Assembly: GCA_965231035.1 (NCBI GenBank)
Contig: OZ246409.1
Location: forward strand, 151,101 to 183,100
Source: an uncultured Muribaculaceae bacterium
GTDB lineage: Bacteria; Pseudomonadota; Alphaproteobacteria; Rs-D84
Direction: 5' to 3'
Length of the DNA: 32,000 nt
Shown: positions 1 through 30,523 of the stretch, one piece after another
Layout of the letters: the number at the start of each line of letters is the position of its first letter
How positions within the stretch are numbered: the first letter of the stretch is position 1
Position numbers and translations under genes: made by a program
Notes under the pieces: model-generated
Seen by the model: only the letters and a program-made list of their open reading frames with translations
Database searches by the model: none
Told to the model about the DNA's origin: nothing

Positions 1-327
1 ATAACCAGCAGTACAAGTCGTTTTTATAGTAGAATAAGCAGTTGCAATATATGTACCATCTGTAGTTTGTATTGGGCACTGATTTCGTGCGGTTAATCCA
101 GTATCACCAGATCTATAACCTGTTGGACACAATGTGCGTCCATAATTTACTGCGGGGTTATTTCTTGTAAAGCCAGTGCAATAATAGGTTGCAGTACATG
201 TTGTGCAAGCTGAACCATTCCAATAAGTTCCAGCTGAACATGTTACTTTGGCGGCAAAAGCATCGTTTGCAAATGTGACTGCAAACACACAAAAAAAGAC
301 CCGCAGAAAAATTCTGAGTTTTTTCAA
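1..327 (-). CDS. Cys-rich repeat exported protein, second paralog; N-terminal 109 codons only, continues past the window edge
   Basis: Not in the ORF track because it has no stop in the window. The reverse-strand frame is open from 327 to 1. TTG at 327-325 has GGGGAG 5 nt upstream and an in-frame stop at 363-361, with no other start codon between. It translates (M)KKLRIFLRVFFCVFAVTFANDAFA/AKVTCSAGTYWNGSACTTCTATYYCTG...LCPTGYRSGDTGLTARNQCPIQTTDGTYIATAYSTIKTTCTAGY. That is a signal peptide followed by the same entry module and 60-aa unit (Cys offsets 0/17/38) as the 2416-aa protein. Confidence 0.65.
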   Translation of the reverse strand, partial: MKKLRIFLRVFFCVFAVTFANDAFAAKVTCSAGTYWNGSACTTCTATYYCTGFTRNNPAVNYGRTLCPTGYRSGDTGLTARNQCPIQTTDGTYIATAYSTIKTTCTAGY

Positions 328-395: not shown

Positions 396-3300
396 TTACA
401 TATTATCGTCATAAACTGAATATTGGGTACCTTGTGAATTAACACGTAAAGACCCCTTGGTATCAGTTGTCATATTTCCATAATAACTTGTGCCATCAAC
501 TTTTACATTTAACGATGGTGTGGTTTTTTTATCGCTACGAAGATAAACTTTTTCATCGTTAACATGTAATAATTTTCCACAATCTCCAGATTCATCTGCG
601 CCCAAACCATAACCAATTGTCATAGTACCAGCAGGACATGCTGTTCTGGTAATTGAATCATTTGCAGACCAATAACCAGTTCCAACATCCACACAAGATC
701 CATCAGATAAATAATACCCACCTTGACATCCACCAACTGTACACAAACCAGTTACAGTATTATCACTGTTCCAAACGGCTGTTGACCAAGAACTTTGATA
801 TTCGCCGCCACCAGCAGAACATGCAGCGTCACAGAAAGACAAGCCAGGCACACTGGTTGTTGTTCCATCCTGACAAGCTGAGCAATAACCAGATGCAGCT
901 GTGCTGTATGAACCAATTGTGCAGTTTGTACAAGTTGATGCCCCTATATCTGCATAGGTTCCAGCCAAGCATTCAAACAATGGTCCAGTGCTGCCATAGC
1001 TTACAAGTGTAGAAGGACAATAGTGTCCCGCAGTGCAAGTTGTTGCCGTTGTATCATTTGCCGTGGCAATATAAGTACCTGCCGTAGTCTGCCATTTACA
1101 TCCTGTTTGTGCGGTTACGCCAGTTCCACCATCATCGTAATTGATTGGACATTCAGTTCTTGTTCCAGTGCTGCCATAATTAACCAACGAAGCAAGACAA
1201 TAATACCCAGCAGTACATTTTGATTGTGTCGTTGTGTTAGCTGTTGCTATAAATCTTCCAGCTGTCGTTTGAATCTGACATTGAGTATTTGCAGTTTTAC
1301 CCGGGTCTGTGTTTGCGGTATATCCACCAGGGCAAGATGTACAACTGCTTTGACCCGACCCAGACCACAATGTGCCTGTACATTGTATAATTGAACCGGT
1401 ACTACCATATGTGACCAAAGCAGTTGGACAATAGCTGCCAGCAATACAATCAACTTGTGTTGTAGAATATGGGGTGTCAATATATTTACCACCAGTTGTT
1501 TGCAATGCACACTGATTTTCTGAATAAAGACTCGTACCGCCAGCTGTGTAACCTGTTGGACAAGCTATCAAAGATCCTGTGTCACCGTAAGTAACCAATG
1601 TGGACGGACAATAATATCCTGATAAACATCGATTCTGAGAAGTGGAATTAGCGGTTGGAATGTAGAAACCTGAACTTGTTAAAATTTTACACTGGTTTTG
1701 TGCAGAAAGCCCCGTGCCACCATTTACATAATTTGTTGGACATGCAACCTGGGGTCCTGTGCTACTCCATCCCACCAGACCACCGGGACAATATGTTCCA
1801 GCGGCACAAATTGTTTCAGTTGTAGCATTTGATGTCGCAATATAATATCCGGCCGTTGCTTGAAATTTACATCCGCTTTTTGATGTTACGCCTGTACCAC
1901 CTTTATCATAATTAGTTGGACAAACAGTTATAGATCCGGTGCTGCCATAATTTATTGATGCAGAGTCACAATAGTATCCAGATTCACAAGTTGTTAATGT
2001 TATATCATTTGCCGTTTTAATATAACTTCCCGCGGTTGTTGTCCATTTACATTCAGTTATTGAGCCTTTACCTGTTCCGCCATTTACATAATTTGTTGGA
2101 CATGCTACAACCGAGCCAGTGCTGCCATAAGTAATCAAAGTTGCCGGACAATAATTACCAGCAGTGCAGGTTGTTTGTGTTGTTGCCCCTGCAGTTGCAA
2201 TATAATACCCTGCGTTTGTTTGCAATGCACACTGATTCTGTGCAGAAAGACCAGTTCCACCTTTATCATAATTTGTTGGGCAGGTCGATCTGGTTCCGGT
2301 GCTGCCATAATTTACTAATGCAGCCAGGCAATAATATCCAGTTGTACAAGTTGTTTGTGTGGTCGAATTTGCAGTTGCAATCCAATTTCCCGCGGTTGTT
2401 TGAATTTGGCATTGTGATTGTAATGTTTTACCAGCTGTCGTGTTTGCATCATATCCAGTTGGACAAGTGGTGCAACTGGACGCGCCCGCCGCCGAATATG
2501 TTGCACCTGTACACTGAGTTCTGGAACCTGTGCCGCCATAGGTAACCAATGCCGCAGGGCAATAATATCCAGCCAAACAATCAACCTGTGTCGAAGAGTT
2601 TGGTGTATCTATATACTTACCTGCTGTTGTAGTAAGTTGACATTGAGTGATTAAAGTTTTTCCAGCTGTTGTATTATTTGTATATCCTGTTGGACAGGCA
2701 GTACAGCTGGACGAACCAGATCCAGAGTATGTCGCACCAGTACATTGCCCTCTGACTCCAGTACTACCATAATTTACTAAACTTGCAGGACAATAATATC
2801 CAGCCGCGCACATTGTTTGTGTTGAATCATTAGCAGTCGCAATATAATAACCAGCATTCGTTTGTATCTGACAATCCGTTTGTGCTGCGGCGCCAGTTCC
2901 ACCATTCATATATCCTGTCGGGCAGGTTGTTAAACCTTGATCAGATGTGCTAGTACTGAATGTTCCACCTAAACAATAACTTCCAGCTGTACAAGTCGAA
3001 CAAGAACCTGAATTGGCTGGTAAATACTGTCCCGCACTGCAAGTAATAGAAGTAACTGTCCATTGAGCATACAATGTAGTAATAGTTGTCGAATCCCAAG
3101 ATTTTGCAGATGCACCAGAAGAGGTGTAATACTGTGTTCCGCCACTGGCTGAATCATAGTAACCATTAAATGTATAACCTGTGCGAGTTGGCATAGTTGC
3201 ACTTGGCATTGCCGCGGCATATGTAACAACAACCGAATCTGTACCCCCAGAACCACTCTCTTTATTAAATGTTATGGTATATGTGTTTGGGGCGCACGCG

Positions 3301-6300
3301 TTATATTCATCAAGAGAATATCCTGCTATACAATTAGCAGAACAATTGTTAGTTACACTATTATCAGTATTCCAAACGGCGGTTGCCCAAGAGCTTACAA
3401 ATTCATTACTGTTTGAACATGTTGTCTCGCAAGCATTAGGAGTAAGTTCACCCGTAGTCATTCCATTTTGACAAGCTATACACGAACTTGCGCCATCAGA
3501 ACTGTATGACCCCGCCATACAATTTTCACAACTAGAGGAACCTGATACAGAGTATGTTCCTGCCGAACATTGTGTCATATCACCAGTGTTGCCATATGAA
3601 ACCAAAACAGCCTGGCAATAATAACCAGCAGGACAAGTTGTTGTAGAAGTGTCATTTGCTGTTGCTATATAATTTCCAGCCGTAGTTTGTATCTGACATT
3701 GAGTTATATCTGTTTTACCAGCATCGGTATTTGATGTATATCCAGTCGGACATGCAGAACAAGTTCCCGATCCAGATGTTGAATATGTTGCACCTGTACA
3801 CTGTGTTCTGCTACCTGTGCTGCCATAATTAACTAATGATGCAGGACATGAATATCCAGCAGTACAAGTTGTCGTACTGGTGTCATTTGCTGTGGCAACA
3901 TAAGTACCAACAGTTGTTTGTATCTGACATTGTGTCGCAGATGTTTTTCCACCAGTCGTATTGGCTGTGTAATTTGTTGGACATGCTGTACAACTGGATG
4001 CTCCAGATTCCGAATATGTTGCACCAGAACATTGCACTTGTGCACCAGACCCACCATAACTTACCCATGCTGCGGGACAGTAATATCCAGCTGGACATGT
4101 TGTTGTTGTTGTATCGTGAACATTCTTAATATAAGTCCCCGCAGTTGTATAGAATGTACATTGATTTTGTGCAAACATTCCAGTTCCACCATCATCATAG
4201 TTGGTTGGACATGGTGACATAGCACCTGTATCACCATAATTTACAGTTGTTCCTGGACAATAATATCCCCCAGGGCAAATTGTTTCAGAAGTATCTTGTT
4301 CATTTGCAATATAATAACCATCAGTTGTTTGGAACATACATTCATATTCAGATGTTAAGTTACCGCCACCATCATCATAATTTTCTGGACAAGATGCTAT
4401 ACCTTGATCTGATTCTGTGCTGACATTATAAGTTCCACCGACGCAGTAGCTATCCGTAGGACAGTCAGAACAAGTTTCTAAATTCACTGGTAAATAAGTT
4501 CCAGCATTGCATGTTACAGATGAAAGTGTCCACTGGGCATAGAGTGTTGTAGATGATGTTTTATCCAAAGATTTTGTGGATGTACCTGTTGCGTCATAAT
4601 ATTGTGTTCCCCCGCTTACAGCATCATAATAACCAATAAATTTATATCCAGATTTTGTTGGTGTGGTTACACTCGGCATAGCAGAGTCATACGTAGCTGA
4701 TACGGATGAAGTTCCACCAGTTCCAGATTGTGCATCAAAAGTAATGTTGTATGTATTTGCTGTCCAATGTGCATATAATGTTGCACTAGAAGTTTTATTC
4801 CATACACTCGCAGATGCACCAGAAGATGTGTAATACTGGGTTCCACCACTTATCGCATCATAATAACCAGCAAACGTATATCCTGTTCTTGTTGGCATAG
4901 TTGCAGATGACATTGCAGAATTATATGGTGCAATAACAGATGCAGTGCCACCAGTTCCACCTTGTGCATCAAGTGTTACTAAATACATAGTTGGCGAACA
5001 TGTACCTCCTGAAATACCATACCCAGCAGCACAACTTACTACTGCGCATATATTAGAAACTTCATTACTGCTGGAATCCCAAGTTGCCACGTCCCATTCT
5101 GTTTCATAGCCAGTATAATTAGAGCAGTTTATATCACATTCTGTTAACCCTTCATCGGATGTGGTTGAACCACCTTGACATGGAATACATGAATCCGAAG
5201 CATCTTCACTGTATGATCCAACTGCACAATTATTGCATGTTGACGAACCAGATAAAGAATAAAGCCCAGCAGGACAACCAGTTGAACTGCCAGTACTTCC
5301 ATAATTAATCAATGAAGCAGGGCAGTAATATCCAGCAAAACATGTCGTTAAAGTTGTATCATTTGCGGTTGCAATATATGTTCCAGCAGTTGTTTGTATT
5401 TGACACTGATTCTGAGCAGTTAAACCAGTTCCACCATCATCATAATTAGTTGGACAGGATGATAAACCAGCGTTTGCAGATGTTGAACGTGTTGCAGTCA
5501 CACCTGTGCAATAATTATTTGATAAACAAGTAGAACAAGCACGACTGGTCTCGGTTGTATTATATAAAAAGTAATTACCAGCAGAACAAGTCAAACTCCA
5601 AGGACAAGCATTAGCCCCACTACCAGTTCCAACATAGCTGGCAGCACTTGGTTTATTAGAACAACTGGAACATGTTTCAGCACCAGAACCATAGTAATAA
5701 TTATGTGCAGCTTTATAGCTTCCAGATGAGCAGGTGCTAACAGTATTACTATTTGCGTTCGCAATGTATTTATCCGCTGTCAATATTGTGCTAGGGATAT
5801 AACATGATGTAGCAGAAGTAGCACTTGAGGCCGAGGTTGTATAATTACTGCCCAATGTTGTACATGCTGTAATACCTTGAGCAGAGCTGGCGTTATAATA
5901 ATATCCTCCACCAGGGCAATAACTACCTGGAGAACAATTTATACAATAGCTGCTATCTGCGGGCAAATATTGACCAGGATTACATGTAATGAAATTCGGT
6001 GTGTATTGTGCATATAATGTTGTGTCGTATGGTATCGGCCATTCGGAGATCAAAGGTTGACCAGAAGCGTCATATATATAATCACCATAATAATCATCCT
6101 CGTAATACCCCTGAAAGGTATAATTATTTATAAAAGGGGGGCCTTGCCATGTCAACTCTGGCAATGAATCGCCATATTGAACTGTTAGAGGACCAGAATC
6201 ATATTGTCCACCTTGTCCCCCCGCATCATCAAAAGTTATTGTGTATGTATTTGCTGAACATGTTGCATTATAACTACCATTATTAACTATATTGCCATAA

Positions 6301-7646
6301 CCTTCATTACAAGATGTTGTGTAGGTACAAACATTACTTACAACAGATAACGAACAACTTGCATTAACTGCAGCACATGCAGTACATGGATTTGCAACAC
6401 CTGTGCTGCCATATGAAATTAATGCAGCTGGGCAAGAATTATTCGCAGGGCATGTTGTTGCAGTTGTTGCATTTGCGGTTGCAATATAAGTACCAGCAGT
6501 TGTTTGAAATTTACACTGATTTTGTGCAGTCAGAGAACTGCCACCAGATGTATAATTCGTAGGGCATGTACTTAATCCACCTGTTGCACCATATCCACCA
6601 TAACTAACCAACAACCCTGGACAATAATAACCACCACCCGGACAAGATGTTTGTGTGGCAGAATTTGCAGTTACTACATAAAATCCCGCAGGAACATTCA
6701 TCTGGCACTGTGATGCTGATGACTTTTGAACGGCAGTATTTGCATTATAACCTGATGGACATGTGGTACAGCTGGATGCACCACCAGATGCATATGTTGC
6801 ACCTGTACATTGAATCATATTTCCAGCAATACCATAAGGAATCAAAGTCGCCGGACATTGATATCCGGGTGGACATGATATCTGGGTGGTTCCCCCAGCA
6901 GTTACATAATACCCGCCCGTAGTTTGAAATTTACATTGACTTTGTGATGTTACCGAAGTTCCACCATTAACATAGTTGGTAGGACAAGAATTTATACCTT
7001 GGTTTGAAGCACTTGTAGTAAAAGTTCCACCAGTACAGTAACTTCCCGCAGTACAAGCAGAACAACTGGTGGCATTAGCAGGTAAATAAGTTCCAGCACT
7101 GCATGTTACAGTGTTTGCTGTCCAATGTTCATACAAGTATGTTGAATCTGAAGAAATAGTTGTTGGAGATGGTAAAACACCACTTGCAGGTATTATCTGT
7201 GTTCCACCACTGGTCGCTGTATAATATCCTGCAAAAGTATAATTTGTTCTGGTTGGAATTGTAACACTGGTGATTGTTGTACTGCCATCTGTCCATCTTA
7301 CACCAAGTATTTCATAAATATATCCAATACCACTGTTTGTAGTGTTAGAATAATTTCTCAATGTAATTTCATATGTTGGTCTAGGACAATAATTTGACCC
7401 TGGACAATAATATCCTTGTCTCCCTGTATAGTTATCATAATCCTGACAACTACAACATCTGTTATCTGTCGCTTCTTCATTAATTTCTTCGCCTGCACAA
7501 CCATCATCAGTGCCGTTACACAAGTAATATCCTTCGACACAAGAGCTATAATCTTTGTAAACAGGGCAGCTATAACCAGCAGCAAACGCATTACCGGCAA
7601 AAAGTACCATTAATAAAAACGTAAAAAGCCTTGCAAATCGTGGCAT
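396..7646 (-). CDS. Giant exported cysteine-rich repeat protein (2416 aa): Flg_new/InlB-B-repeat-like modules plus ephrin-receptor-like (GCC2_GCC3-type) Cys-rich units; putative surface adhesin or host-interaction protein
   Basis: Single uninterrupted ORF. The N-terminus MPRFARLFTFLLMVLFAGNAFA/AGY looks like a Sec signal peptide. Five Cys-free modules match the Listeria-Bacteroides repeat pattern (YTITFD..GG......P..PT+.GY.F.GYY......LYAQW). Units such as CTGATYSGSGSSSCTACPTGYTNNTTAGKTLITQC resemble the C..C..G.Y......C..CP.G pattern of ephrin-receptor-like repeats. About 157 Cys by hand count. Confidence 0.9.
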   Translation of the reverse strand: MPRFARLFTFLLMVLFAGNAFAAGYSCPVYKDYSSCVEGYYLCNGTDDGCAGEEINEEATDNRCCSCQDYDNYTGRQGYYCPGSNYCPRPTYEITLRNYSNTTNSGIGYIYEILGVRWTDGSTTITSVTIPTRTNYTFAGYYTATSGGTQIIPASGVLPSPTTISSDSTYLYEHWTANTVTCSAGTYLPANATSCSACTAGSYCTGGTFTTSASNQGINSCPTNYVNGGTSVTSQSQCKFQTTGGYYVTAGGTTQISCPPGYQCPATLIPYGIAGNMIQCTGATYASGGASSCTTCPSGYNANTAVQKSSASQCQMNVPAGFYVVTANSATQTSCPGGGYYCPGLLVSYGGYGATGGLSTCPTNYTSGGSSLTAQNQCKFQTTAGTYIATANATTATTCPANNSCPAALISYGSTGVANPCTACAAVNASCSLSVVSNVCTYTTSCNEGYGNIVNNGSYNATCSANTYTITFDDAGGQGGQYDSGPLTVQYGDSLPELTWQGPPFINNYTFQGYYEDDYYGDYIYDASGQPLISEWPIPYDTTLYAQYTPNFITCNPGQYLPADSSYCINCSPGSYCPGGGYYYNASSAQGITACTTLGSNYTTSASSATSATSCYIPSTILTADKYIANANSNTVSTCSSGSYKAAHNYYYGSGAETCSSCSNKPSAASYVGTGSGANACPWSLTCSAGNYFLYNTTETSRACSTCLSNNYCTGVTATRSTSANAGLSSCPTNYDDGGTGLTAQNQCQIQTTAGTYIATANDTTLTTCFAGYYCPASLINYGSTGSSTGCPAGLYSLSGSSTCNNCAVGSYSEDASDSCIPCQGGSTTSDEGLTECDINCSNYTGYETEWDVATWDSSSNEVSNICAVVSCAAGYGISGGTCSPTMYLVTLDAQGGTGGTASVIAPYNSAMSSATMPTRTGYTFAGYYDAISGGTQYYTSSGASASVWNKTSSATLYAHWTANTYNITFDAQSGTGGTSSVSATYDSAMPSVTTPTKSGYKFIGYYDAVSGGTQYYDATGTSTKSLDKTSSTTLYAQWTLSSVTCNAGTYLPVNLETCSDCPTDSYCVGGTYNVSTESDQGIASCPENYDDGGGNLTSEYECMFQTTDGYYIANEQDTSETICPGGYYCPGTTVNYGDTGAMSPCPTNYDDGGTGMFAQNQCTFYTTAGTYIKNVHDTTTTTCPAGYYCPAAWVSYGGSGAQVQCSGATYSESGASSCTACPTNYTANTTGGKTSATQCQIQTTVGTYVATANDTSTTTCTAGYSCPASLVNYGSTGSRTQCTGATYSTSGSGTCSACPTGYTSNTDAGKTDITQCQIQTTAGNYIATANDTSTTTCPAGYYCQAVLVSYGNTGDMTQCSAGTYSVSGSSSCENCMAGSYSSDGASSCIACQNGMTTGELTPNACETTCSNSNEFVSSWATAVWNTDNSVTNNCSANCIAGYSLDEYNACAPNTYTITFNKESGSGGTDSVVVTYAAAMPSATMPTRTGYTFNGYYDSASGGTQYYTSSGASAKSWDSTTITTLYAQWTVTSITCSAGQYLPANSGSCSTCTAGSYCLGGTFSTSTSDQGLTTCPTGYMNGGTGAAAQTDCQIQTNAGYYIATANDSTQTMCAAGYYCPASLVNYGSTGVRGQCTGATYSGSGSSSCTACPTGYTNNTTAGKTLITQCQLTTTAGKYIDTPNSSTQVDCLAGYYCPAALVTYGGTGSRTQCTGATYSAAGASSCTTCPTGYDANTTAGKTLQSQCQIQTTAGNWIATANSTTQTTCTTGYYCLAALVNYGSTGTRSTCPTNYDKGGTGLSAQNQCALQTNAGYYIATAGATTQTTCTAGNYCPATLITYGSTGSVVACPTNYVNGGTGKGSITECKWTTTAGSYIKTANDITLTTCESGYYCDSASINYGSTGSITVCPTNYDKGGTGVTSKSGCKFQATAGYYIATSNATTETICAAGTYCPGGLVGWSSTGPQVACPTNYVNGGTGLSAQNQCKILTSSGFYIPTANSTSQNRCLSGYYCPSTLVTYGDTGSLIACPTGYTAGGTSLYSENQCALQTTGGKYIDTPYSTTQVDCIAGSYCPTALVTYGSTGSIIQCTGTLWSGSGQSSCTSCPGGYTANTDPGKTANTQCQIQTTAGRFIATANTTTQSKCTAGYYCLASLVNYGSTGTRTECPINYDDGGTGVTAQTGCKWQTTAGTYIATANDTTATTCTAGHYCPSTLVSYGSTGPLFECLAGTYADIGASTCTNCTIGSYSTAASGYCSACQDGTTTSVPGLSFCDAACSAGGGEYQSSWSTAVWNSDNTVTGLCTVGGCQGGYYLSDGSCVDVGTGYWSANDSITRTACPAGTMTIGYGLGADESGDCGKLLHVNDEKVYLRSDKKTTPSLNVKVDGTSYYGNMTTDTKGSLRVNSQGTQYSVYDDNM
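972..2924 (-). repeat. Array of ten Cys-rich units (aa 1575-2225), lengths 60, 77, 77, 60, 60, 60, 60, 60, 77, 60 aa
   Basis: Unit-initial Cys at aa 1575, 1635, 1712, 1789, 1849, 1909, 1969, 2029, 2089 and 2166; the exit module starts at 2226. No indels are needed and the Cys offsets are the same as in the other arrays. The 60-aa consensus is CPTNY[DV].GGTG..AQNQC..QTTAG.YIATAN.TT.TTC.AGYYCP..LV.YGSTG.... Confidence 0.85.
3057..3284 (-). repeat. B-repeat module 5 (aa 1455-1530)
   Basis: TYTITFNKESGSGGTDSVVVTYAAAMPSATMPTRTGYTFNGYYDSASGGTQYY...TLYAQWT. At the DNA level, 3115-3212 is 79/98 identical to 4819-4916 (module 3) in my by-eye alignment. Confidence 0.75.
3570..4391 (-). repeat. Array of four Cys-rich units (aa 1086-1359), lengths 60, 60, 77, 77 aa
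   Basis: Unit-initial Cys at aa 1086, 1146, 1206 and 1283; the exit module starts at 1360. Cys offsets are 0/17/38/44 in the 60-aa units and 0/13/16/34/55/61 in the 77-aa units. Confidence 0.8.
4527..4988 (-). repeat. B-repeat modules 3 and 4 in tandem (aa 887-963 and 965-1040)
   Basis: MYLVTLDAQGGTGGTASVIAPYNSAMSSATMPTRTGYTFAGYYDAISGGTQYY...TLYAHWTAN, followed by TYNITFDAQSGTGGTSSVSATYDSAMPSVTTPTKSGYKFIGYYDAVSGGTQYY...TLYAQWT. Confidence 0.75.
6003..6248 (-). repeat. B-repeat module 2 (aa 467-548), Flg_new-like, Cys-free
   Basis: TYTITFDDAGGQGGQYDSGPLTVQYGDSLPEL...NNYTFQGYYEDD...TTLYAQYTPN. Confidence 0.6.
7116..7376 (-). repeat. B-repeat module 1 (aa 91-177), Flg_new-like, Cys-free
   Basis: TYEITLRNYSNTTNSG...IPTRTNYTFAGYYTATSGGTQI...STYLYEHWTAN. 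Confidence 0.6.
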
Positions 7647-7676: not shown

Positions 7677-7706
7677 ATTATAGAAAAAATACCAAATGTG
7701 TTGCAA
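7677..7706 (-). promoter_or_regulatory. Candidate promoter of the giant gene
   Basis: The reverse strand reads TTGCAA (7706-7701), an 18-nt spacer, then TATAAT (7682-7677). A purine-rich AAGAGAG lies about 13 nt upstream of the ATG at 7646. Confidence 0.45.
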
Positions 7707-7762: not shown

Positions 7763-8060
7763 ATCAGATAAACAGGACATAGCTGGCGGTTTCCGTCAGA
7801 GGAAAGTCCGGACACCATGGGACAGCATAGCGGCTAACGGCCGCGCGGGGCAACCCGACGATCAGAGCAACAGAGACGAGTCGATTAAATTCGAGTGAAA
7901 CGGGCAATCTCTATGCGGTGCAACTTCAAATAGGTTCTCGTACAATCCGTCCCAGATTGAGAACGGGTAGAAGGCTTGACATTTGCAGTAATGCAAAATG
8001 CAGATTAATTATGTCCACCATAGCAATATGGAACAGAATCCGGCTTATCGTTTATCTGAC
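7763..8060 (+). ncRNA. rnpB: RNase P RNA, bacterial type A, compact (about 298 nt)
   Basis: Conserved P4 strands GAGGAAAGTCCGG (7799-7811) and ACAGAATCCGGCTTATCG (8033-8050). Also CAACAGAGA, GTGAAA, AAATAGG and GGGTAG..GCTTGA blocks collinear with E. coli M1 RNA. P1 pairs tcagataaac (7764-7773) with gtttatctga (8050-8059), and P2 pairs ggacat with atgtcc (8011-8016). Confidence 0.88.
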
Positions 8061-8065
8061 TTATT

Positions 8066-8096
8066 AAAAAACGCGCCAAACGGCGCGATTTTTTAC
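8066..8096. terminator. Bidirectional intrinsic terminator shared by rnpB (+) and tolA (-)
   Basis: Stem CGCGCC (8072-8077), loop AAAC, stem GGCGCG (8082-8087). It is flanked by an A-run upstream and a T-run downstream, so there is a U-tract on both strands. Confidence 0.8.
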
Positions 8097-8812
8097 ATAA
8101 TCTTTCCACTTATCGGATAGAATGTTAATTGGATTTTTTCCCACTTATCAAATTCTGAAACAGGTAACATTTTGAAAGGTTGGCAAGTTTTAACAGCACT
8201 GCGAATTGTTTCCAAAACATATGCGAACGCAGGATCACTGCTTTCACGTGCCGCAGATTCAAACCACAAATCACGAACAGTTCCATTTTGATACATTGTC
8301 AAATGTGCAACTGCACGAATATCGGTAATGTCACTGCGTCCTGTATCAACTGTCCAACAACGGGTCAGGGCAACACGCAAAGCATCAACAACCGAAACAG
8401 TCATCGTGCGATTTAATGAAACAGTTTCACGATTTACGCGAACTGTCATTAATTTCTTTGGTAAATTTTTATCACTTTTGGTGGTTGTTTTCTTTTTTTC
8501 TGCAACCATACTGGGGGTTTTTATCGGTTTATCATCACCGAAATCTTCATCAGCTTTGGCCTTTTTATTTTTTGACTCTTGCTGTTTAGTTTCTTGGATA
8601 TCGGGTGTATCGGTATTATAAAGTTTGGTTTCATCACCAGTAACTTTTACATGATTCAAATCTATTTCCATAATTTGAACACGATCTGGGGCAACCAATT
8701 GTGCGCGTTTTATAACAATCACAAACGAAGTAATCATAAATGCAACAATTACCAAATGCCCCAAAACGGACATCAAAATATTTTCAGAAGAAAAATGCTT
8801 ATTATCATTCAT
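8093..8812 (-). CDS. tolA: TolA-like protein (N-terminal TM anchor, Lys/Glu-rich linker, TolA/TonB-type C-terminal domain)
   Basis: TM segment VLGHLVIVAFMITSFVIVI, a charged linker (KQQESKNKKAKADED..KKKTTTKSDK), a C-terminal globular domain, and a position directly after tolR. Confidence 0.6.
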   Translation of the reverse strand: MNDNKHFSSENILMSVLGHLVIVAFMITSFVIVIKRAQLVAPDRVQIMEIDLNHVKVTGDETKLYNTDTPDIQETKQQESKNKKAKADEDFGDDKPIKTPSMVAEKKKTTTKSDKNLPKKLMTVRVNRETVSLNRTMTVSVVDALRVALTRCWTVDTGRSDITDIRAVAHLTMYQNGTVRDLWFESAARESSDPAFAYVLETIRSAVKTCQPFKMLPVSEFDKWEKIQLTFYPISGKIM

Positions 8813-9220: not shown

Positions 9221-9787
9221 TTATTTATACTCCGATTTTAATTTTGAATATATCAACGTATCACAAACGCCACAACATTTTGCATATGAACTTTGACGTG
9301 TTATTCCCTCAAGCACATAATTATTTTTCTTTGCTATATTTTCAGATTTTATATTATCTGAATCAATTTCCATTTGTATTCTGTTAAAGCCTAATTCAAA
9401 AATCTGTTTTTCCAGTGCTTTCAAAGCTTCTGTCATAAAACCATGACCTGTCTCGGAATCTGATAACCAGTACCCAATTTCACAGCTGGCAACATCCCAA
9501 GGATTTATATTAAAAAATCTAATTCTTCCTATAAATCTATCATTTTTAAAAATTCCAAAACAAAAACCTGTTTTATTATTCCATTGTTCATCACGTTTTT
9601 GTAACTGTTTAAGCATATCATCTGGATTTTTTATATATTCAATAAATCCCTGCCATTGTTCCAAACTTTCACGCGAAGCATCAATAACATCAAATATCAT
9701 TTGCGCATTTTTTTGTGACGGTTCAATGCGACGCAATTCAAGCCGTTCTGTTTTTATAATTTCTGGAAAATTAGACAACTCTATCAT
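9221..9787 (-). CDS. GNAT N-acetyltransferase, RimJ/RimL-like
   Basis: 188 aa. Contains TERLELRRIEP...IGRIRFFNI......EIGYWLSDSETGHGFMTEALKALEKQIFELGFNRIQMEIDSDNIKSENIAKKNNYVLEG, which is typical of Acetyltransf_3-type GNATs. Confidence 0.75.
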   Translation of the reverse strand: MIELSNFPEIIKTERLELRRIEPSQKNAQMIFDVIDASRESLEQWQGFIEYIKNPDDMLKQLQKRDEQWNNKTGFCFGIFKNDRFIGRIRFFNINPWDVASCEIGYWLSDSETGHGFMTEALKALEKQIFELGFNRIQMEIDSDNIKSENIAKKNNYVLEGITRQSSYAKCCGVCDTLIYSKLKSEYK

Positions 9788-10307: not shown

Positions 10308-11114
10308 TTATTTATTATTTTCATTTAAATTAAACTTTACATATTTTTCAGTCAAGGATTTTAATTCATCAACTGTTGGTTTAATATAAAAAAGCCGCTT
10401 TCCATTTGTTAATTCATTTGAAAGTTCCAAACGATTCTTACCAAAAAAACTTACCAAGGTTTTGTAAGCTTTCATATCATTAACTTTTGGGATAAATATA
10501 ACAATTCCCTTTTTACTATCATTATATATTCCATTTGTTTTTAGAATTTCTTCTATCTTGTCAAAATTTTTATTAACAGAATTCAAAAAATTCTTAACTT
10601 TATCTACATTAGAATAAATTCTTTTATAGGCATCTTTTGATTCTGAATCATCAGCTAAAACACCCATATCTTTGTTTATAAAATTCCGTTGTGGACCAAT
10701 TTTAACAGAAATTACTGGATATTTATTTTTTCTAATATCACCGTATTTATTATCCAATGCAAAAGCAATCTGTTTTAATTCATCACTTTCATAATATTTC
10801 ACAATATCTTTACTTGAACCTTTATTTAAATATGCATCTTCGCTTACACCAAAAAACGGGTACCATTTGCCAGTTGGCACATCTTTTTTGCCTCCTATAC
10901 CGCTGGATAAATAAAAAGGTATACGGAACCCATTTATATTCACAACTACTAAAACACGGTCAAGAATATTTACAAATTGAGATGAACCTTTAAATAAAGG
11001 CAATGTTTTATCTAATAAACCATTGCTCCCGGCACTGTAAGTTTCAAACGGAATTTCTTCCAAAAAAACATCGTGATTGGCGATTTTTGTTAAAATTGCA
11101 TTGGAACTATACAT
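10308..11114 (-). CDS. Hypothetical protein, 268 aa, no motif recognised
   Basis: Long ORF in operon register, with a 2-nt gap to ybgC and a 12-nt gap to tolQ. It is very AT-rich compared with its neighbours. No signal peptide or TM segment is evident. Confidence 0.6.
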   Translation of the reverse strand: MYSSNAILTKIANHDVFLEEIPFETYSAGSNGLLDKTLPLFKGSSQFVNILDRVLVVVNINGFRIPFYLSSGIGGKKDVPTGKWYPFFGVSEDAYLNKGSSKDIVKYYESDELKQIAFALDNKYGDIRKNKYPVISVKIGPQRNFINKDMGVLADDSESKDAYKRIYSNVDKVKNFLNSVNKNFDKIEEILKTNGIYNDSKKGIVIFIPKVNDMKAYKTLVSFFGKNRLELSNELTNGKRLFYIKPTVDELKSLTEKYVKFNLNENNK

Positions 11115-26088: not shown

Positions 26089-26165
26089 TGGTCGGGGTAG
26101 CGGGATTCGAACCCACGACCCCTTGCACCCCATGCAAGTACTCTACCAGGCTGAGCTATACCCCG
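26089..26165 (-). tRNA. tRNA-Pro (anticodon GGG), with encoded CCA
   Basis: The reverse complement folds as acceptor CGGGGUA/UACCCCG, D-arm GCUC..GAGU, anticodon stem CUUGC/GCAAG with loop AUGGGGU, T-arm GUGGG-UUCGAAU-CCCGC, discriminator A, CCA; 77 nt. Confidence 0.9.
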
Positions 26166-26674: not shown

Positions 26675-26707
26675 AAAAATGCCGCAATTTTTGCGGCATT
26701 TTTTTAT
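26675..26707. terminator. Bidirectional intrinsic terminator shared by acpS (+) and the 573-aa gene (-)
   Basis: Stem atgccgcaa (26679-26687), loop ttt, stem ttgcggcat (26691-26699), flanked by an A-run and a T-run. Confidence 0.8.
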
Positions 26708-28425
26708 TCTGAATAATTACTGTCTGGTGATGGTGCCTGATAATTTTCATCAGCAACAAATCTTCTTTCGCCAGAAACATCATAAGTTGGTTTTCTTGGA
26801 CCCATTTCTGGTGCTGAGGCTGGTTGCATCATTTGCTGAGGTTCTTCTGCCGGTAGTGCAGGTGGCATTGTATTTCCAGAATCATCTGATTGAATTGGCA
26901 GTTCAGGTGCCTGTTGTGGTTCTATGACAACTTCTGGGGCTGATGCTTCTGCTGTTTCGTTTATCACTGCTGGTGCAGGTTGTGGTTCTGTAACAACAGG
27001 TTGTTCAACTTCAACCGGAGCAGGTTCTGCAACTTCTGCTGGGGCTGCTTTTTCAGCCTGGATAAATGGACTTTCGACATTTGCCTCTTGGACAACAACT
27101 GGTGCTTCTTCAACAGCTTTTGGTTGTTCTGAAATTGATTCTTGGACAGATTGTTTTGCCAAATCCGGAACTGTATCAACTGTTCTTTTTTGATACATCC
27201 AAAGTGTAAAAACTGATAAAACAATTAATACGACCAATAAAACATAATACAAAGCATTTGGACGCTTATGATGTTCAATCATTATTTGTTCTGGACCAGA
27301 AATAGGCGATATAGGTCTGACAACAGGTTGTGGTGTCGGAATTGGTGTAATAGTTTCCAATACAGGAACTTGTTTTGGTTGTTCTGGAATAATAACAGGT
27401 TCTGGGGACAAAGTTTGCCCGATGGTCGGCGGAACAAAAGACAAAGGTGCCGATGGTATCTCTGCAACAACTGGTTTTACAACAATTGGTTCTGTATGTA
27501 TAACTGGTGCAAGAGCAGGTTGTTCCAAAGGTTTTTGAGTAAAACTGAAATCAATAGGCTTAAAAGCTATTCCTTGGTCCATAATCTTTGGGTCTTGATC
27601 AAACAACGGTTTTACTTCTTCTGACATTTCTTGTGCCTTTGGTTCTTCTTTCTTAATTTCTTTTCTTGTTTCGTCTTTTTTATCCAGTATACGACGCGCA
27701 ATTTCTGCATCTTCTTCGGCCACAGCCATACGTCTTTGAGCATTCTTCAAACGTTTCATCGCACGTTTCAGTTTTGCATTAGTCGCATCAATCTGAGATT
27801 CAGTTTTTAATATCTTGGCTGCAGATTGTTTGGTTGGCTCTTTACCAACTTGTTTTTTTTGCTTTGATAATTTATCACGCAACTTTTTCAATCTGGATTG
27901 CAGCTCTCGCATAGTTTCACCAGTTTTTGAAATTGTTTCACGTGTTTTTTTGATTATTTCTGTGGATGCAGCCAATCTGTCAGCAGCAGCACGTTTTATC
28001 GAAGAATTTCTGAAATCTGATAAATCTTCCAGCGCAAATGTTAAATCTGCAGATTTTTTGTAATCGTTTATAAGTTTGTCATAAACCGCCAGACCACTGT
28101 ATTCAATATCCAGCTTTTGATATTTATTATCAACCTTTGGACGGATTGTTTCTAAATCCACACCAAAGTCATTTGCCAATATATCATCCCATTTGCGATC
28201 CCCAATCGGATTTATAATCAACAATACATTTGGCTTTCTGTCATCAAAAGTCTTATCTAAAACAAATACCAGCTTTTCTGCACCGTCATAATAAGCCGTA
28301 AAGTCGTTCCCAGAAATACTAAAATCCTTGGGCGACAGTTTTGTTTGTGTATCTGCCGAAGTCTTTGGCGGGGTTTTGGTCAAAGGCTTTGTTTTAACTG
28401 AAATGTTTTCTCTCTCTTTTTTCAT
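26704..28425 (-). CDS. Bitopic membrane protein: N-terminal globular region, coiled coil, Pro-rich linker, TM helix, Pro/Glu/Ala-rich C-terminal tail (573 aa)
   Basis: Heptad-like charged segment (RETISKTGETMRELQSRLKKLRDKLSKQKKQ...KLKRAMKRLKNAQRRMAVAEEDAEIARRILDKK). Single TM ALYYVLLVVLIVLSVFTLWMY. Low-complexity PAPAEVAEPAPVEVEQPVVTEPQPAP. The start is 3 nt after the gcrA stop. Confidence 0.75.
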   Translation of the reverse strand: MKKERENISVKTKPLTKTPPKTSADTQTKLSPKDFSISGNDFTAYYDGAEKLVFVLDKTFDDRKPNVLLIINPIGDRKWDDILANDFGVDLETIRPKVDNKYQKLDIEYSGLAVYDKLINDYKKSADLTFALEDLSDFRNSSIKRAAADRLAASTEIIKKTRETISKTGETMRELQSRLKKLRDKLSKQKKQVGKEPTKQSAAKILKTESQIDATNAKLKRAMKRLKNAQRRMAVAEEDAEIARRILDKKDETRKEIKKEEPKAQEMSEEVKPLFDQDPKIMDQGIAFKPIDFSFTQKPLEQPALAPVIHTEPIVVKPVVAEIPSAPLSFVPPTIGQTLSPEPVIIPEQPKQVPVLETITPIPTPQPVVRPISPISGPEQIMIEHHKRPNALYYVLLVVLIVLSVFTLWMYQKRTVDTVPDLAKQSVQESISEQPKAVEEAPVVVQEANVESPFIQAEKAAPAEVAEPAPVEVEQPVVTEPQPAPAVINETAEASAPEVVIEPQQAPELPIQSDDSGNTMPPALPAEEPQQMMQPASAPEMGPRKPTYDVSGERRFVADENYQAPSPDSNYSE

Positions 28426-28428
28426 TTC

Positions 28429-28986
28429 TTACTTTTTCTTTGATGGAGTGAACTGATATGCGCATTTACAATGTTCATAACAATAAGGTTTTCCTACGAA
28501 CACTTGTTCGCCACAAAAATGAAAGCTTTCTGAATCTGGATCACCAATAGGCCAACGGCACTGATCTTGGCGTAAATTTGCCATTCCCAGTGAATGCTGA
28601 ACAATCCGCTGGTGCATTGCCAGATTCTTTGGTGATGATTTATCCAATTTGGAAACTTTTTCAGCGACTGGTTTTGCGGCTGTTTTCTCGTTTTCTGCTT
28701 TTTTTGCCGGCTTTTTCTCAGAAACTTGCTTTGCCCCAGGTTTTGCCACAGACTTTACAGAAGATTTTTTCGCTGCAACCGGTGTTTTCGGCTTTTTTGC
28801 AACTGCTTTTTCCACAGTTTTTGCACTGACGCCACCGGCCTTGGAATTCCAACCCAATCTGTTTAATTTACCAACAATAGCATTCTTGGACATACCCAAT
28901 CTTTTGCCAATTTCTGCGGTTGACAGACCTTTACCAGTTAATGCTTTTAATTTTTTAAGCGTTGTAGTATCCCAGCCTTTGCTCAT
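28429..28986 (-). CDS. gcrA: Cell-cycle transcriptional regulator GcrA
   Basis: N-terminus W....LKKL...GLSTAEIGKRLGMSKNAIVGKLNRLGW, a Lys/Ala/Pro linker, and C-terminus QCRWPIGDPDSESFHFCGE.V..GKPYCYEHCKCAYQ. This is the characteristic GcrA architecture. Confidence 0.9.
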   Translation of the reverse strand: MSKGWDTTTLKKLKALTGKGLSTAEIGKRLGMSKNAIVGKLNRLGWNSKAGGVSAKTVEKAVAKKPKTPVAAKKSSVKSVAKPGAKQVSEKKPAKKAENEKTAAKPVAEKVSKLDKSSPKNLAMHQRIVQHSLGMANLRQDQCRWPIGDPDSESFHFCGEQVFVGKPYCYEHCKCAYQFTPSKKK

Positions 28987-29060: not shown

Positions 29061-29525
29061 ATGTTTTATTACTTGATTTTTGCAATTTTATTACTGGCAG
29101 CAGCGTGGTGCGCATTTCAGATGTCAGTATCTGATTTTCGACGCAGAATTATCCCAGATGCCTATCTTTTCCCATTTATGATTTTGGGATTGTTGGTTGT
29201 AACTTTTTTCCCTTGGGTTTCTTCAACTAGTGACTCGGTTATTGGTGCTGCTTTTGGGTATGCAATGGGATCAGTTGTAGGATTTATCTTTGAAAAAGTG
29301 AAAAAGAAAAAGGGCGAATTTTCGCCAATCGGTATGGGTGATGTAAAATTGCTGGCGGCTGGGGGAATTTGGCTGGGGTTGACAGGTTTAGCAATGGCAA
29401 TTATAATTTCTTGTATTTTTGGTGGAATTTGGGGGATGCGCAAAAAAGAAAAATATATCCCATTTGCACCATTCTTTTTCATGGGTGGAATTTTGTCTTT
29501 GATTAGCCTTTGGTTTTTGGTATAA
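29061..29525 (+). CDS. A24-family prepilin peptidase (CpaA/TadV-like, no methyltransferase domain)
   Basis: 154 aa polytopic membrane protein with both aspartyl motifs: SDFRRRIIPD and GMGDVKLLAAGGIWLG. Confidence 0.8.
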   Translation: MFYYLIFAILLLAAAWCAFQMSVSDFRRRIIPDAYLFPFMILGLLVVTFFPWVSSTSDSVIGAAFGYAMGSVVGFIFEKVKKKKGEFSPIGMGDVKLLAAGGIWLGLTGLAMAIIISCIFGGIWGMRKKEKYIPFAPFFFMGGILSLISLWFLV

Positions 29526-29542
29526 TCTGTCAAAGAGAGAAT

Positions 29543-30523
29543 ATGAAAAAAGTTTCAATTTATCTTTTGGCGGGCTTTGCTCCATTTTCATCTGCATTTG
29601 CAGTTGATTTTCCGGCTGGGAATAATGTTCAGCCTTTATCAAAATATGGCGAAATTCAGAACGTCAGCAACTATTCATCAAATCCAAATTGGAATCATAA
29701 CGGCGCATACAATCAAACTATGCCGACACCTGTTTATGTCCAAGGGGCGGCGGTAAGCACCGAAGAATGTCAATCACTTGTATCTGGACTTGTTGCATCT
29801 GGGTGCAGTATGCAAAACAATTGTGTTGGTGTAAAATTAAATGATATAAAACCAACAATTATGGTTCAATTATCCCAAATGCCAGAACACAATTATGTTA
29901 GTGCTTGTGGCGGTTATATTGATTCAGCATTTAATTCTTATGTTTTAAATCAGGGCGTCGTCGTAAAACCAGTGACTTTCCCAAATGCTGTTTTTCCAGG
30001 AAGCAATTCTGAACAAGAAGATTTTAAAATAAAAAATCCTTATGCGATGAAGTATCCCGAATGGAATGGTGAAAAATGGTTTCAAGGTATTGTTGATCGT
30101 TCCCAAGAATTAGGTGCTTTGCAGGCAAAAAATGCAGAAGATACAACTTTGGTTGCAACAGATATGCCAAAAACTGCTGCGGATATGACATTTGAACAAA
30201 AGATTGCAAATTCAACCGAGGGTTATGAACAGTGGAAGGCAAAGTATGAATGGGTCGAAGATTCTGATGGTAAAAGACAATGGGTATGTACCAAGAATTG
30301 TGCATATCAAACTTTGAGTATAGAAAGTACAAAATCCGCATTACAACGCGAATCCGAAGAATTAACCAAACAAAAAGAAGTTGATAAACTTAAAATGACC
30401 AGGGATGCTTATTGTAAAAAATATCAACAAGAGCCCGAGTGTAATGAAAATAAAAATAGTACTTATACAAATAATAATACTGGATCTATAAAAGTTAAAT
30501 TGAAAGGTTTTGTAAAAAAATAA
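29543..30523 (+). CDS. Exported hypothetical protein, 326 aa
   Basis: Signal peptide MKKVSIYLLAGFAPFSSAFA/VDFP, with the ATG at 29543 preferred over the track's start at 29510. Several Cys pairs and a charged, coiled-coil-like C-terminus. It starts 17 nt after the peptidase gene. Confidence 0.7.
   Translation: MKKVSIYLLAGFAPFSSAFAVDFPAGNNVQPLSKYGEIQNVSNYSSNPNWNHNGAYNQTMPTPVYVQGAAVSTEECQSLVSGLVASGCSMQNNCVGVKLNDIKPTIMVQLSQMPEHNYVSACGGYIDSAFNSYVLNQGVVVKPVTFPNAVFPGSNSEQEDFKIKNPYAMKYPEWNGEKWFQGIVDRSQELGALQAKNAEDTTLVATDMPKTAADMTFEQKIANSTEGYEQWKAKYEWVEDSDGKRQWVCTKNCAYQTLSIESTKSALQRESEELTKQKEVDKLKMTRDAYCKKYQQEPECNENKNSTYTNNNTGSIKVKLKGFVKK

Follow-up and report, generated by a model that had tools for sequence, protein, structure and literature searches.

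Several described families of cysteine-rich modules form the background to the locus reported here. The cysteine-rich domain of the tumour necrosis factor receptor (TNFR) holds six cysteines per approximately 40 residues with 1-2, 3-5, 4-6 connectivity, and the TNFR B2 module has a crossed 1-3/2-4 disulfide pattern. The Ephrin_rec_like family (PF07699, formerly GCC2_GCC3; ELAPOR1, SCUBE, Eph receptors) is defined by the motif C-x2-G-x-[FY]-x(6-8)-C-x2-C-P-x-G-x-[FY], and Giardia-type variant surface proteins (VSPs) carry many CXXC motifs, a C-terminal transmembrane helix and a CRGKA tail; these CXXC-rich proteins of an anaerobe have been reported to bind metal. The 'CysRRep' repeats are cysteine-rich, occur in secreted proteins shared among bacteria, phages and eukaryotes, and have been reported as markers of cross-domain gene transfer (bioRxiv 10.64898/2026.06.07.730663). 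In Myxococcus xanthus TraA, a long cysteine-rich hairpin region has been proposed to act as a disulfide-stiffened presentation stalk (PMC12045341), and the Flg_new domain of gut-associated microbes is regarded as an element of stalk or adhesin-like type (bioRxiv 10.1101/2021.12.07.471604; PMC9723798). Here, we report on a gene for a cysteine-rich modular protein of 2,416 residues (referred to as the giant protein), which lies in a 32,000-nucleotide stretch of DNA from an uncultured bacterium of the alphaproteobacterial lineage Rs-D84 (assembly GCA_965231035.1, contig OZ246409.1, positions 151,101 to 183,100; hereafter the window).

The giant protein is built largely from units of 60 or 77 aa whose cysteines keep a fixed register. 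We infer for these units a rod-like shape and length, a surface location and a part in adhesion; on balance, they probably make up the disulfide-stiffened stalk of a Sec-exported, fibrillar adhesin-like surface protein.

Repeat units and their predicted fold

A script run on the translated open reading frame (ORF) placed the unit-initial cysteines of 15 units at residues 731, 1086, 1146, 1206, 1283, 1575, 1635, 1712, 1789, 1849, 1909, 1969, 2029, 2089 and 2166, exactly where the first-pass annotation of the window had counted them. As that annotation had also claimed, the cysteines of all 15 sit either at offsets 0/17/38/44 with the next unit 60 residues on, or at 0/13/16/34/55/61 with the next unit 77 residues on, and the string of cysteine gaps is always 17, 21, 6, 16 or 13, 3, 18, 21, 6, 16. 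The lengths given for the three N-proximal units (59, 81 and 60 aa) were reproduced by parsing the cysteine gaps, 16 of the 18 listed units are indeed free of indels, and an automated check for variable unit lengths or shifted cysteines found none among the 15 canonical units. The interval 972..4391, to which the earlier description referred, corresponds exactly to aa 1086-2225 and holds 14 of the 18 units together with the tail module of block C, one Flg_new domain and the head module of block D (Table 1). A hidden Markov model (HMM) of the unit returned 19 matches in the protein, the 18 listed units at independent E-values of 1e-20 to 1e-34 and a weak, divergent 19th unit at aa 588-655 which the earlier list did not contain. 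The repeats are real, far beyond chance.

Outside the cysteines, the units vary considerably, as had been stated: amino acid identity is 43-73% (mean 55%) among the 60-aa units and 62-70% among the 77-aa units, and unit DNA is 56-71% identical. Tandem Repeats Finder (TRF) detected one 231-nt pair, at 3619-4103, and nothing else, so that repeat tools working at the DNA level are of little use on these units. One part of the earlier description had to be revised, namely that the 77-aa form is the 60-aa form with a 17-residue, two-cysteine insertion in its first loop. In an alignment with MAFFT, the 60-aa unit begins (C0, CPTNY) opposite C16 of the 77-aa unit (CPTGY), and the 77-aa unit is accordingly read as the 60-aa unit with one hairpin module placed in front. 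The 17 extra residues consist of a 16-residue N-terminal C-x12-C-x2 piece, CTGATYSGSGSSSCTA, and a single additional residue in loop 1 (GGT-G versus NTTAG).

The sequence divergence of the units bears on their age. Pairwise Nei-Gojobori estimates gave a median dN of 0.41 and dS of 1.31 for the 60-aa units and of 0.29 and 1.22 for the 77-aa units; the smallest dS between any two units was 0.73 and dN/dS is approximately 0.3, while no indel occurs among the 15 units of the giant protein or the nine units of its tandem paralog (described below). Divergence of this depth (dS ~1.3, dN/dS ~0.3) with no indels argues for selection on length rather than for recent duplication, and points to old copies under purifying selection whose indel-free state reflects that selection. 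The exact unit lengths could instead be a by-product of recent tandem duplication or gene conversion, with no structural constraint behind them. Units resemble one another slightly more within the protein than they resemble those of the paralog (best 0.55-0.79 versus 0.50-0.76), and other spacings are used by other members of the family. Such an origin is nevertheless extremely improbable: it is largely refuted by the low DNA identity, the minimum dS, the median of about 1.3 and the single TRF pair, and the 60/77 grammar is also kept in the paralog and in a different species. The register itself, which had been described as fixed, holds within the giant protein and the paralog but is not absolute, as relatives vary in both core spacing and unit length. 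Across 120 homologs, the core spacing takes discrete values (18/39/45/61, 20/40/46/63, 16/37/43/59 and 17/38/44/60). Unit length is constrained within a subtype and is not an absolute property of the fold.

Three consecutive units (77+60+60 aa; aa 1706-1915) were modelled with AlphaFold2 from a 16-row alignment, which yielded a mean predicted local distance difference test (pLDDT) score of 92.8 and a predicted template-modelling (pTM) score of 0.78. By DSSP, a helical turn at offsets 14-16 recurs in both 60-aa units, as do short strands at 18-20, 25-26, 36-37, 42-43, 48-50 and 58-59; the 77-aa unit repeats this pattern shifted by one residue and adds a hairpin within its first 16 residues. A prediction of this kind had been expected to give one consistent fold for each unit, and it did so, with secondary-structure elements at identical offsets in all three units. 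The high pLDDT and the recurring DSSP elements are consistent with a structured module in fixed register, not a low-complexity repeat, as had been proposed. The form suggested for it, a stacked solenoid, fared less well. Strict periodicity, the Gly/Tyr/Thr-rich composition and a pTM of 0.78 for three units, implying fixed geometry between them, would all suit units that stack into a β-solenoid with one or more coils each. The predicted strands, however, are only two to three residues long and form local, short β-hairpins joined by long loops. A Foldseek search of the PDB listed ELAPOR1 first, then 4-1BB, OX40, TNFR2, p75NTR, CD40, DcR3, DR6 and Eph-receptor ectodomains, all below significance; no β-helix or solenoid stood among the top matches, which are rods of TNFR type, and we regard a solenoid as very unlikely.

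The disulfide pairs proposed earlier for the 60-aa unit, 0-17 and 38-44, were compared with the gain and loss of cysteines in relatives. Cysteine occupancy was tabulated in 641 homologous units from 119 other proteins aligned to the unit HMM, in 77-aa numbering. Cys55 occurs together with Cys61 or Cys74 in 486 units and is missing along with them from 128, leaving 27 discordant; Cys61 and Cys74 exclude each other (209 versus 278 units, with no co-occurrence). Another pair, Cys38/Cys51, is complete in 138 units, missing from 500 and discordant in three, and nearly always substitutes for Cys55. In 638 of the 641 units, Cys34 coexists with Cys13 or Cys16; Cys0 occurs with Cys13 in 167 units and with Cys6 in 48. 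Since cysteines are thus gained and lost as neighbouring pairs, the data fit sequential disulfides a-b, c-d, e-f, among them the putative 0-17 and 38-44 bonds, the chemistry being indicated indirectly, by covariation. In the 60-aa unit, a 16-residue loop would be closed by Cys0-Cys17 and followed by three short hairpins, the middle one bearing Cys38-Cys44; the 77-aa unit would carry an additional hairpin module (C-x12-C, then x2) in front.

The same cysteines might instead bind zinc or iron, making the modules metal-stabilised knuckles. C-x2-C is present in the 77-aa units and in the head and tail modules, and relatives belong to an anaerobic, fermentative gut lineage without respiratory chains, in which oxidative folding may be limited (PMC12306168). 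Metal binding nonetheless appears distinctly unlikely, for the cysteines change in pairs with alternative partner positions and not in quartets, C-x2-C is missing from the 60-aa unit, conserved His or Asp co-ligands are lacking, and there is no Pfam match to the Giardia VSP family.

Putative stalk of a proposed surface fibre

The product of the giant gene is rich in Thr, Gly, Ser, Ala and Tyr and contains 157 cysteines, and an identical 2,416-aa protein is carried by eight assembled contigs, the longest of 848,746 bp. It would leave the cytoplasm by the Sec pathway, its predicted signal peptide combining a basic n-region, a hydrophobic core and an AFA-A site in an N-terminus common to many relatives. 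Each cysteine block is preceded by one or two Flg_new domains and opened by a head module (Cys gaps 13,3,6,17/18). A tail module (Cys gaps 13,3,13,3,14,4,25-26,4-5,11-12) closes blocks B, C and D, while the end module of block A differs. The protein may accordingly be described as four super-repeats, each of the form Flg_new, head module, n units and tail module. The Flg_new assignment (Pfam PF09479), which concerns the domains separating the blocks rather than the units, scores 95 bits over five stretches against a cut-off of 27 bits; TIGR02543 scores 25.7 bits on the giant protein against a cut-off of 20.95. In the proposed arrangement, the 60/77-aa units would be small disulfide-stapled β-hairpin modules strung head to tail into a stiff extended stalk, the cysteine modules being a spacer of quantised length; contacts would be made by the Flg_new domains or, in relatives, by other inserted domains.

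The last ~98 residues are the most conserved part of the family. AlphaFold2 predicts a small β domain for them (pLDDT 95.2, pTM 0.83), which has no match among PDB folds (best E 2.2, TM < 0.25) and none in Pfam or NCBIfam. This domain probably holds the protein on the cell envelope or binds a conserved partner, and is put forward as a candidate anchor. Neither the unit nor the C-terminal domain is catalogued, and each stands as a confident domain family. A scan with a query alignment of seven C-terminal sequences against one genome per GTDB species found 105 loci, nearly all in uncultured Alphaproteobacteria of human (UMGS, Hadza), chicken, horse, ruminant and mouse guts. These include Candidatus Enterousia and metagenome-assembled genomes (MAGs) labelled 'Rickettsiales', the closest matches being two Zod_Metabat MAGs, and several genomes hold two or three such loci. 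In another relative, P0061, a similar domain is internal and not terminal.

Directly downstream of the giant gene lies a paralog with the same head, tail and C-terminal domain and with nine units of its own, each again exactly 60 or 77 aa long. A syntenic ortholog of the pair was found in the close relative MAG Zod_Metabat.497, whose RuvB is 89% identical, and measures 905 + 454 aa versus 2,416 + 851 aa here, a copy-number plasticity typical of surface fibres. Its units are mostly exactly 60 or 77 aa as well, with one of 56 and one of 78. The 905-aa ortholog (L003:7571-10288) gives a hint, and only a hint, of a discoidin-like F5/8 type C insert between units and tail, at a sub-threshold 17.7 versus 28.2 bits. 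The closest full-length homologs are at most ~50% identical, as compared with 74-89% for neighbouring housekeeping proteins (Tol, RuvB). In an exhaustive profile search of 1.84 billion cluster representatives, no more than 397 clusters matched the unit at E <= 1e-3; the number falls to 183 at <= 1e-10 and to 65 at <= 1e-30. The matched stretches numbered 34 in the relative P0003 and 22 in the giant protein, the most among the 150 matches listed after P0003.

P0003 (L082:6001-17379) is itself a protein of 3,792 aa, whose units of ~75 aa have Cys74 in place of Cys61; its N-terminus is of prepilin type, and its gene neighbours encode dockerin, cadherin-like and LytR proteins. These neighbours and the N-terminus suggest a Gram-positive gut bacterium as its host, and the module family appears to cross phylum boundaries among gut bacteria.

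Tandem paralogs, and unit numbers that differ widely from one close species to another, are in keeping with how surface fibres behave. A ~0.85-Mb genome that keeps two adjacent fibre genes (7.3 kb and at least 2.6 kb) probably depends on them, which makes them obvious candidates for attachment to a host or partner. Much of the same evidence would also suit a variable surface coat that evades phage, immunity or predation, for which the repeats would be a cheap, expandable, protease-resistant covering and not an adhesin. The two paralogs stand in tandem in the window region and many relatives have genomes with two or three such loci, close species differ greatly in repeat number, and full-length homologs are far more divergent than their housekeeping neighbours. 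The identical protein on all eight contigs, however, leaves no within-population switching visible, and the Flg_new domains point to binding; beside the gene, neither inverted repeats nor a recombinase were seen, although no search aimed at them was made. We consider a coat unlikely as the primary role, although coat and adhesin readings are compatible.

Several observations weigh against the stalk proposal. Neither a lipobox nor a β-barrel, sorting tag or recognised adhesive domain was found in the giant protein with Pfam and NCBIfam. The best Foldseek match in the PDB has an E-value of 0.18, with TM scores of 0.2-0.4 and none significant, and in the viral library BFVD the leading poxvirus and iridovirus TNF-receptor-like proteins reach no better than 6.8e-3, again without significance; rod-like proteins of many modules tend to superpose poorly. 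The 157 cysteines are an odd number, so that at least one must be unpaired. Finally, stable extracellular disulfides are not assured, as the lineage is described as anaerobic and without respiratory chains (PMC12306168). No DsbA/DsbB or VKOR gene is encoded in the window, 32 kb of a contig of ~0.85 Mb.

The genus Enterousia belongs to the order Rs-D84 and is reported to have genomes of less than ~1 Mb, no TCA cycle, no respiratory chains and an anaerobic lifestyle; the study describing it does not mention these proteins (PMC12306168). The ~0.85-Mb contig, GcrA and the 74-89% identity of the Tol and RuvB proteins to those of related MAGs likewise suggest that the window belongs to this group, and the bacterium is probably gut-associated with a small genome. 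The Rs-D84/Enterousia group is uncultured, has small genomes and is widespread in the gut communities of humans and animals. A broader proposal, which we offer tentatively and hold to be doubtful, is that the unit and the unmatched C-terminal domain represent an undescribed surface-fibre system of small-genome gut Alphaproteobacteria, with related units in other gut bacteria, supplying quantised rods for an obligate attached life, bound to a host or to other microbes, in an anaerobic habitat. If this were true, each genome of the Rs-D84/Ca. Enterousia type (<1 Mb) would devote ~1% of its DNA per copy to rods, and extracellular disulfides would be stable in an anaerobic habitat where they are unexpected. 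If the disulfides are real, the lineage must be able to form and keep them under anaerobic conditions. For protein science, the giant protein would offer a clean natural example of a length-quantised disulfide rod assembled from 60-aa and 77-aa parts.

Feature map and genomic neighbourhood

The features of the giant gene and its immediate flanks are collected in Table 1.

Table 1. Features of the giant gene and its flanks, in window positions (aa, residues of the 2,416-aa protein)
Feature	Position	Strand	Basis and remarks
Tandem paralog start, continues beyond the window	1..315	-	851 aa as called, L001:10359-12914; start near 315 deduced from upstream frame
Gene for 2,416-aa cysteine-rich modular protein	396..7646	-	Single ORF, ATG start; stop codon 396-398
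Conserved C-terminal domain, aa 2319-2416	399..692	-	...GYGLGADESGDCG...YLRSDKKTTPSLNV...YSVYDDNM; family conservation, AlphaFold2
Block D tail module, aa 2226-2318	693..971	-	Cys gaps; Ephrin_rec_like 22.2 bits for isolated tail
Block D units of 60, 77, 77, 60, 60, 60, 60, 60, 77, 60 aa (aa 1575-2225)	972..2924	-	Cys spacing, HMM, AlphaFold2 of aa 1706-1915
Block D head module, aa 1536-1574	2925..3041	-	Cys gaps
Flg_new domain 5, ~aa 1455-1530	3057..3284	-	Pfam; end motif YAQWT at 1526
Block C tail module, aa 1360-1451	3294..3569	-	Cys gaps 13,3,13,3,14,4,25,4,12; near-threshold Ephrin_rec_like at 1363-1400
Block C units of 60, 60, 77, 77 aa (aa 1086-1359)	3570..4391	-	Cys spacing, unit HMM
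Block C head module, aa 1046-1085	4392..4511	-	Cys gaps 13,3,6,18
Flg_new domains 3 and 4, ~aa 888-1040	4527..4985	-	Best Pfam stretch 966-1038; end motifs at 958, 1036
Block B, aa 555-885: head, divergent unit aa 588-655, one canonical 60-aa unit, tail	4992..5984	-	Cys gaps, unit HMM
Block B canonical 60-aa unit, aa 731-790	5277-5456	-
Flg_new domain 2, ~aa 468-549	6000..6245	-	Pfam; end motif YAQYT; approximate boundaries
Block A, aa 182-465: head module, three deviant units, end module	6252..7103	-	Cys-gap grammar
Block A units of 59, 81, 60 aa (starts aa 221, 280, 361)	6810-6986, 6567-6809, 6387-6566	-	HMM matches 204-280, 280-354, 357-421
Flg_new (Listeria-Bacteroides repeat) domain 1, ~aa 91-176	7119..7376	-	Pfam PF09479; end motif YEHWT; approximate boundaries
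N-terminal cysteine-rich cap, aa 23-90, 9 Cys	7377..7580	-	Cys positions; motif AAGYSCP.YK.YSSC common with relatives
Predicted Sec-type signal peptide, aa 1-22	7581..7646	-	MPRFARLFTFLLMVLFAGNAFA followed by AG; read by eye from sequence
Promoter-like -35/-10, TTGCAA-18-TATAAT	7677..7706	-	~30 nt 5' of ATG; 10/12 consensus matches (consensus scan alone)
RNase P RNA, bacterial class A	7764-8063	+	217.8 bits; between TolA-like and giant gene, divergent from giant gene
Bidirectional terminator-like hairpin	8072-8087		After RNase P RNA gene

Two opposite-strand ORFs within the giant gene (653..1012 and 2141..2545, both with TTG starts) were set aside for want of support. The neighbouring genes are ruvB, a NUDIX gene, ybgC, tolQ, tolR and a TolA-like gene, together with argS, rplM-rpsI, tig, rpsA, cmk, corA, a two-component system and GcrA, and indicate an alphaproteobacterial chromosome of 32-40% G+C. 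In approximately 18 related loci, the ruvB-ybgC-tolQ-tolR-TolA-like cluster stands directly upstream of the gene with the C-terminal domain. A functional link with the Tol system was rejected, because the RNase P RNA gene and the terminator-like hairpin intervene and small genomes tend to keep gene order. Given the RNase P RNA on the opposite strand, the hairpin and the promoter-like site, the giant gene is taken to be transcribed on its own, and the synteny to reflect conserved order.

Within the Tol cluster, the minus-strand gene at 8093-8812 encodes a protein of 239 aa that combines an N-terminal membrane helix with a Lys-rich linker and weakly matches the TolA C-terminus (23.1 bits, below the cut-off of 59.45); it is 52-74% identical in ~18 related loci and is probably a short TolA. 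A GNAT gene at 9221-9787, between tolQ and tolR, is common only to L003, and a 268-aa ORF between ybgC and tolQ (10308-11114, minus strand) has no family match and no tblastn match in 80 related loci. The latter lies in a low-GC stretch (~0.32 versus 0.40) and may be a recent acquisition. Elsewhere in the window, the GcrA cell-cycle regulator (28429-28986, minus strand) adjoins a prepilin peptidase (Peptidase_A24; 29061-29525, plus strand), whose end is overlapped by a 337-aa ORF without family match (29510-30523, plus strand), which may mark the start of a Tad-type pilus locus. A tRNA-Pro (GGG) gene at 26089-26165 is adjacent to a 573-aa ORF at 26704-28425 with weak coiled-coil-type matches only, both on the minus strand.

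Comparison with described cysteine-rich and fibrillar proteins

In Pfam and NCBIfam searches of the giant protein, only the five Flg_new domains were recognised, along with sub-threshold Ephrin_rec_like matches in the tail modules. The Ephrin_rec_like cut-off of 23.1 bits was not reached, with scores of 22.6 for the whole protein (best stretch in a tail module) and 22.2 for an isolated tail; isolated 77-aa units score 9.5 bits, and isolated 60-aa units have no Pfam match. Sequence searches of the PDB with the whole protein and the unit profile returned nothing relevant, the single match being a nanobody complementarity-determining region (E 0.38).

The nearest resemblance at the level of sequence is to Ephrin_rec_like. 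Every 77-aa unit has, in its front half (CTGATYSGSGSSSCTACPTGY), the motif of that family as C-x2-G-x-Y-x7-C-x2-C-P-x-G-Y; the motif recurs in the heads and tails but is absent from the 60-aa units, which start CPTNY. In the 48-residue model of the family, nothing corresponds to the C-terminal two thirds of the unit (C17 to the next C0), where the C-x-A-G-Y-Y-C hairpin and the YGSTG turn lie. One relative, P0105, reaches 288 bits for Ephrin_rec_like in 15 stretches and also matches TNFR_ELAPOR1_6th. From the ephrin-type motif in its front part and the score of P0105, the unit is therefore placed as a divergent offshoot of the ephrin-receptor-like/TNFR-like class of modules, uncatalogued beyond the front motif. 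With the TNFR cysteine-rich domains (A1/B2) it would share a construction from small disulfide-pinned hairpin modules strung into a rod, and TNFR structures fill the Foldseek lists, but there is no sequence match and the structural matches are non-significant. Pfam TNFR_c6 gives no match, and the units hold four or six cysteines in 60 or 77 aa, unlike a TNFR domain. In contrast to the crossed pairing of the B2 modules, covariation indicates sequential single-disulfide modules in the giant protein.

Other cysteine-rich families lie further away. The giant protein has no Pfam VSP match, its C-terminus is a predicted soluble β domain ending in DDNM, and its 60-aa units are without CXXC, which sets it apart from the Giardia-type VSPs. 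An identity with CysRRep was rejected, as the pattern Cx6-9Cx5-7Cx8-11Cx7-8CC (bioRxiv 10.64898/2026.06.07.730663) is incompatible with 0/17/38/44 and 0/13/16/34/55/61. In function, the closest bacterial analogue is the stalk proposed for TraA; no homology with it was seen, although no search aimed at it was made. TraA has a MYXO-CTERM tag and a single variable head, whereas the giant protein ends in a folded β domain and its stalk segments alternate with Flg_new.

Monzon et al. define a fibrillar adhesin by great length with a rod-like region of repeated stalk domains, and by a recognisable adhesive domain and a cell-surface anchor. With its 2,416 aa, 18-19 units and five Flg_new domains, the giant protein shows the first of these traits; for the second, Pfam and NCBIfam recognised no known adhesive or anchor family in it, and the C-terminal domain is a candidate anchor. 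Great length, a signal peptide, tandem repeats of variable number and the presence of Flg_new are all shared with fibrillar adhesins that have repeated stalk domains (Flg_new, Big), but its stalk module is cysteine-based and uncatalogued, and no known adhesive tip or anchor domain was found in it. Taken together, the giant protein would be a case of a TNFR/ephrin-receptor-like cysteine repeat put to use as the stalk of a bacterial fibre, joined to an unmatched C-terminal domain, in a poorly understood gut lineage.

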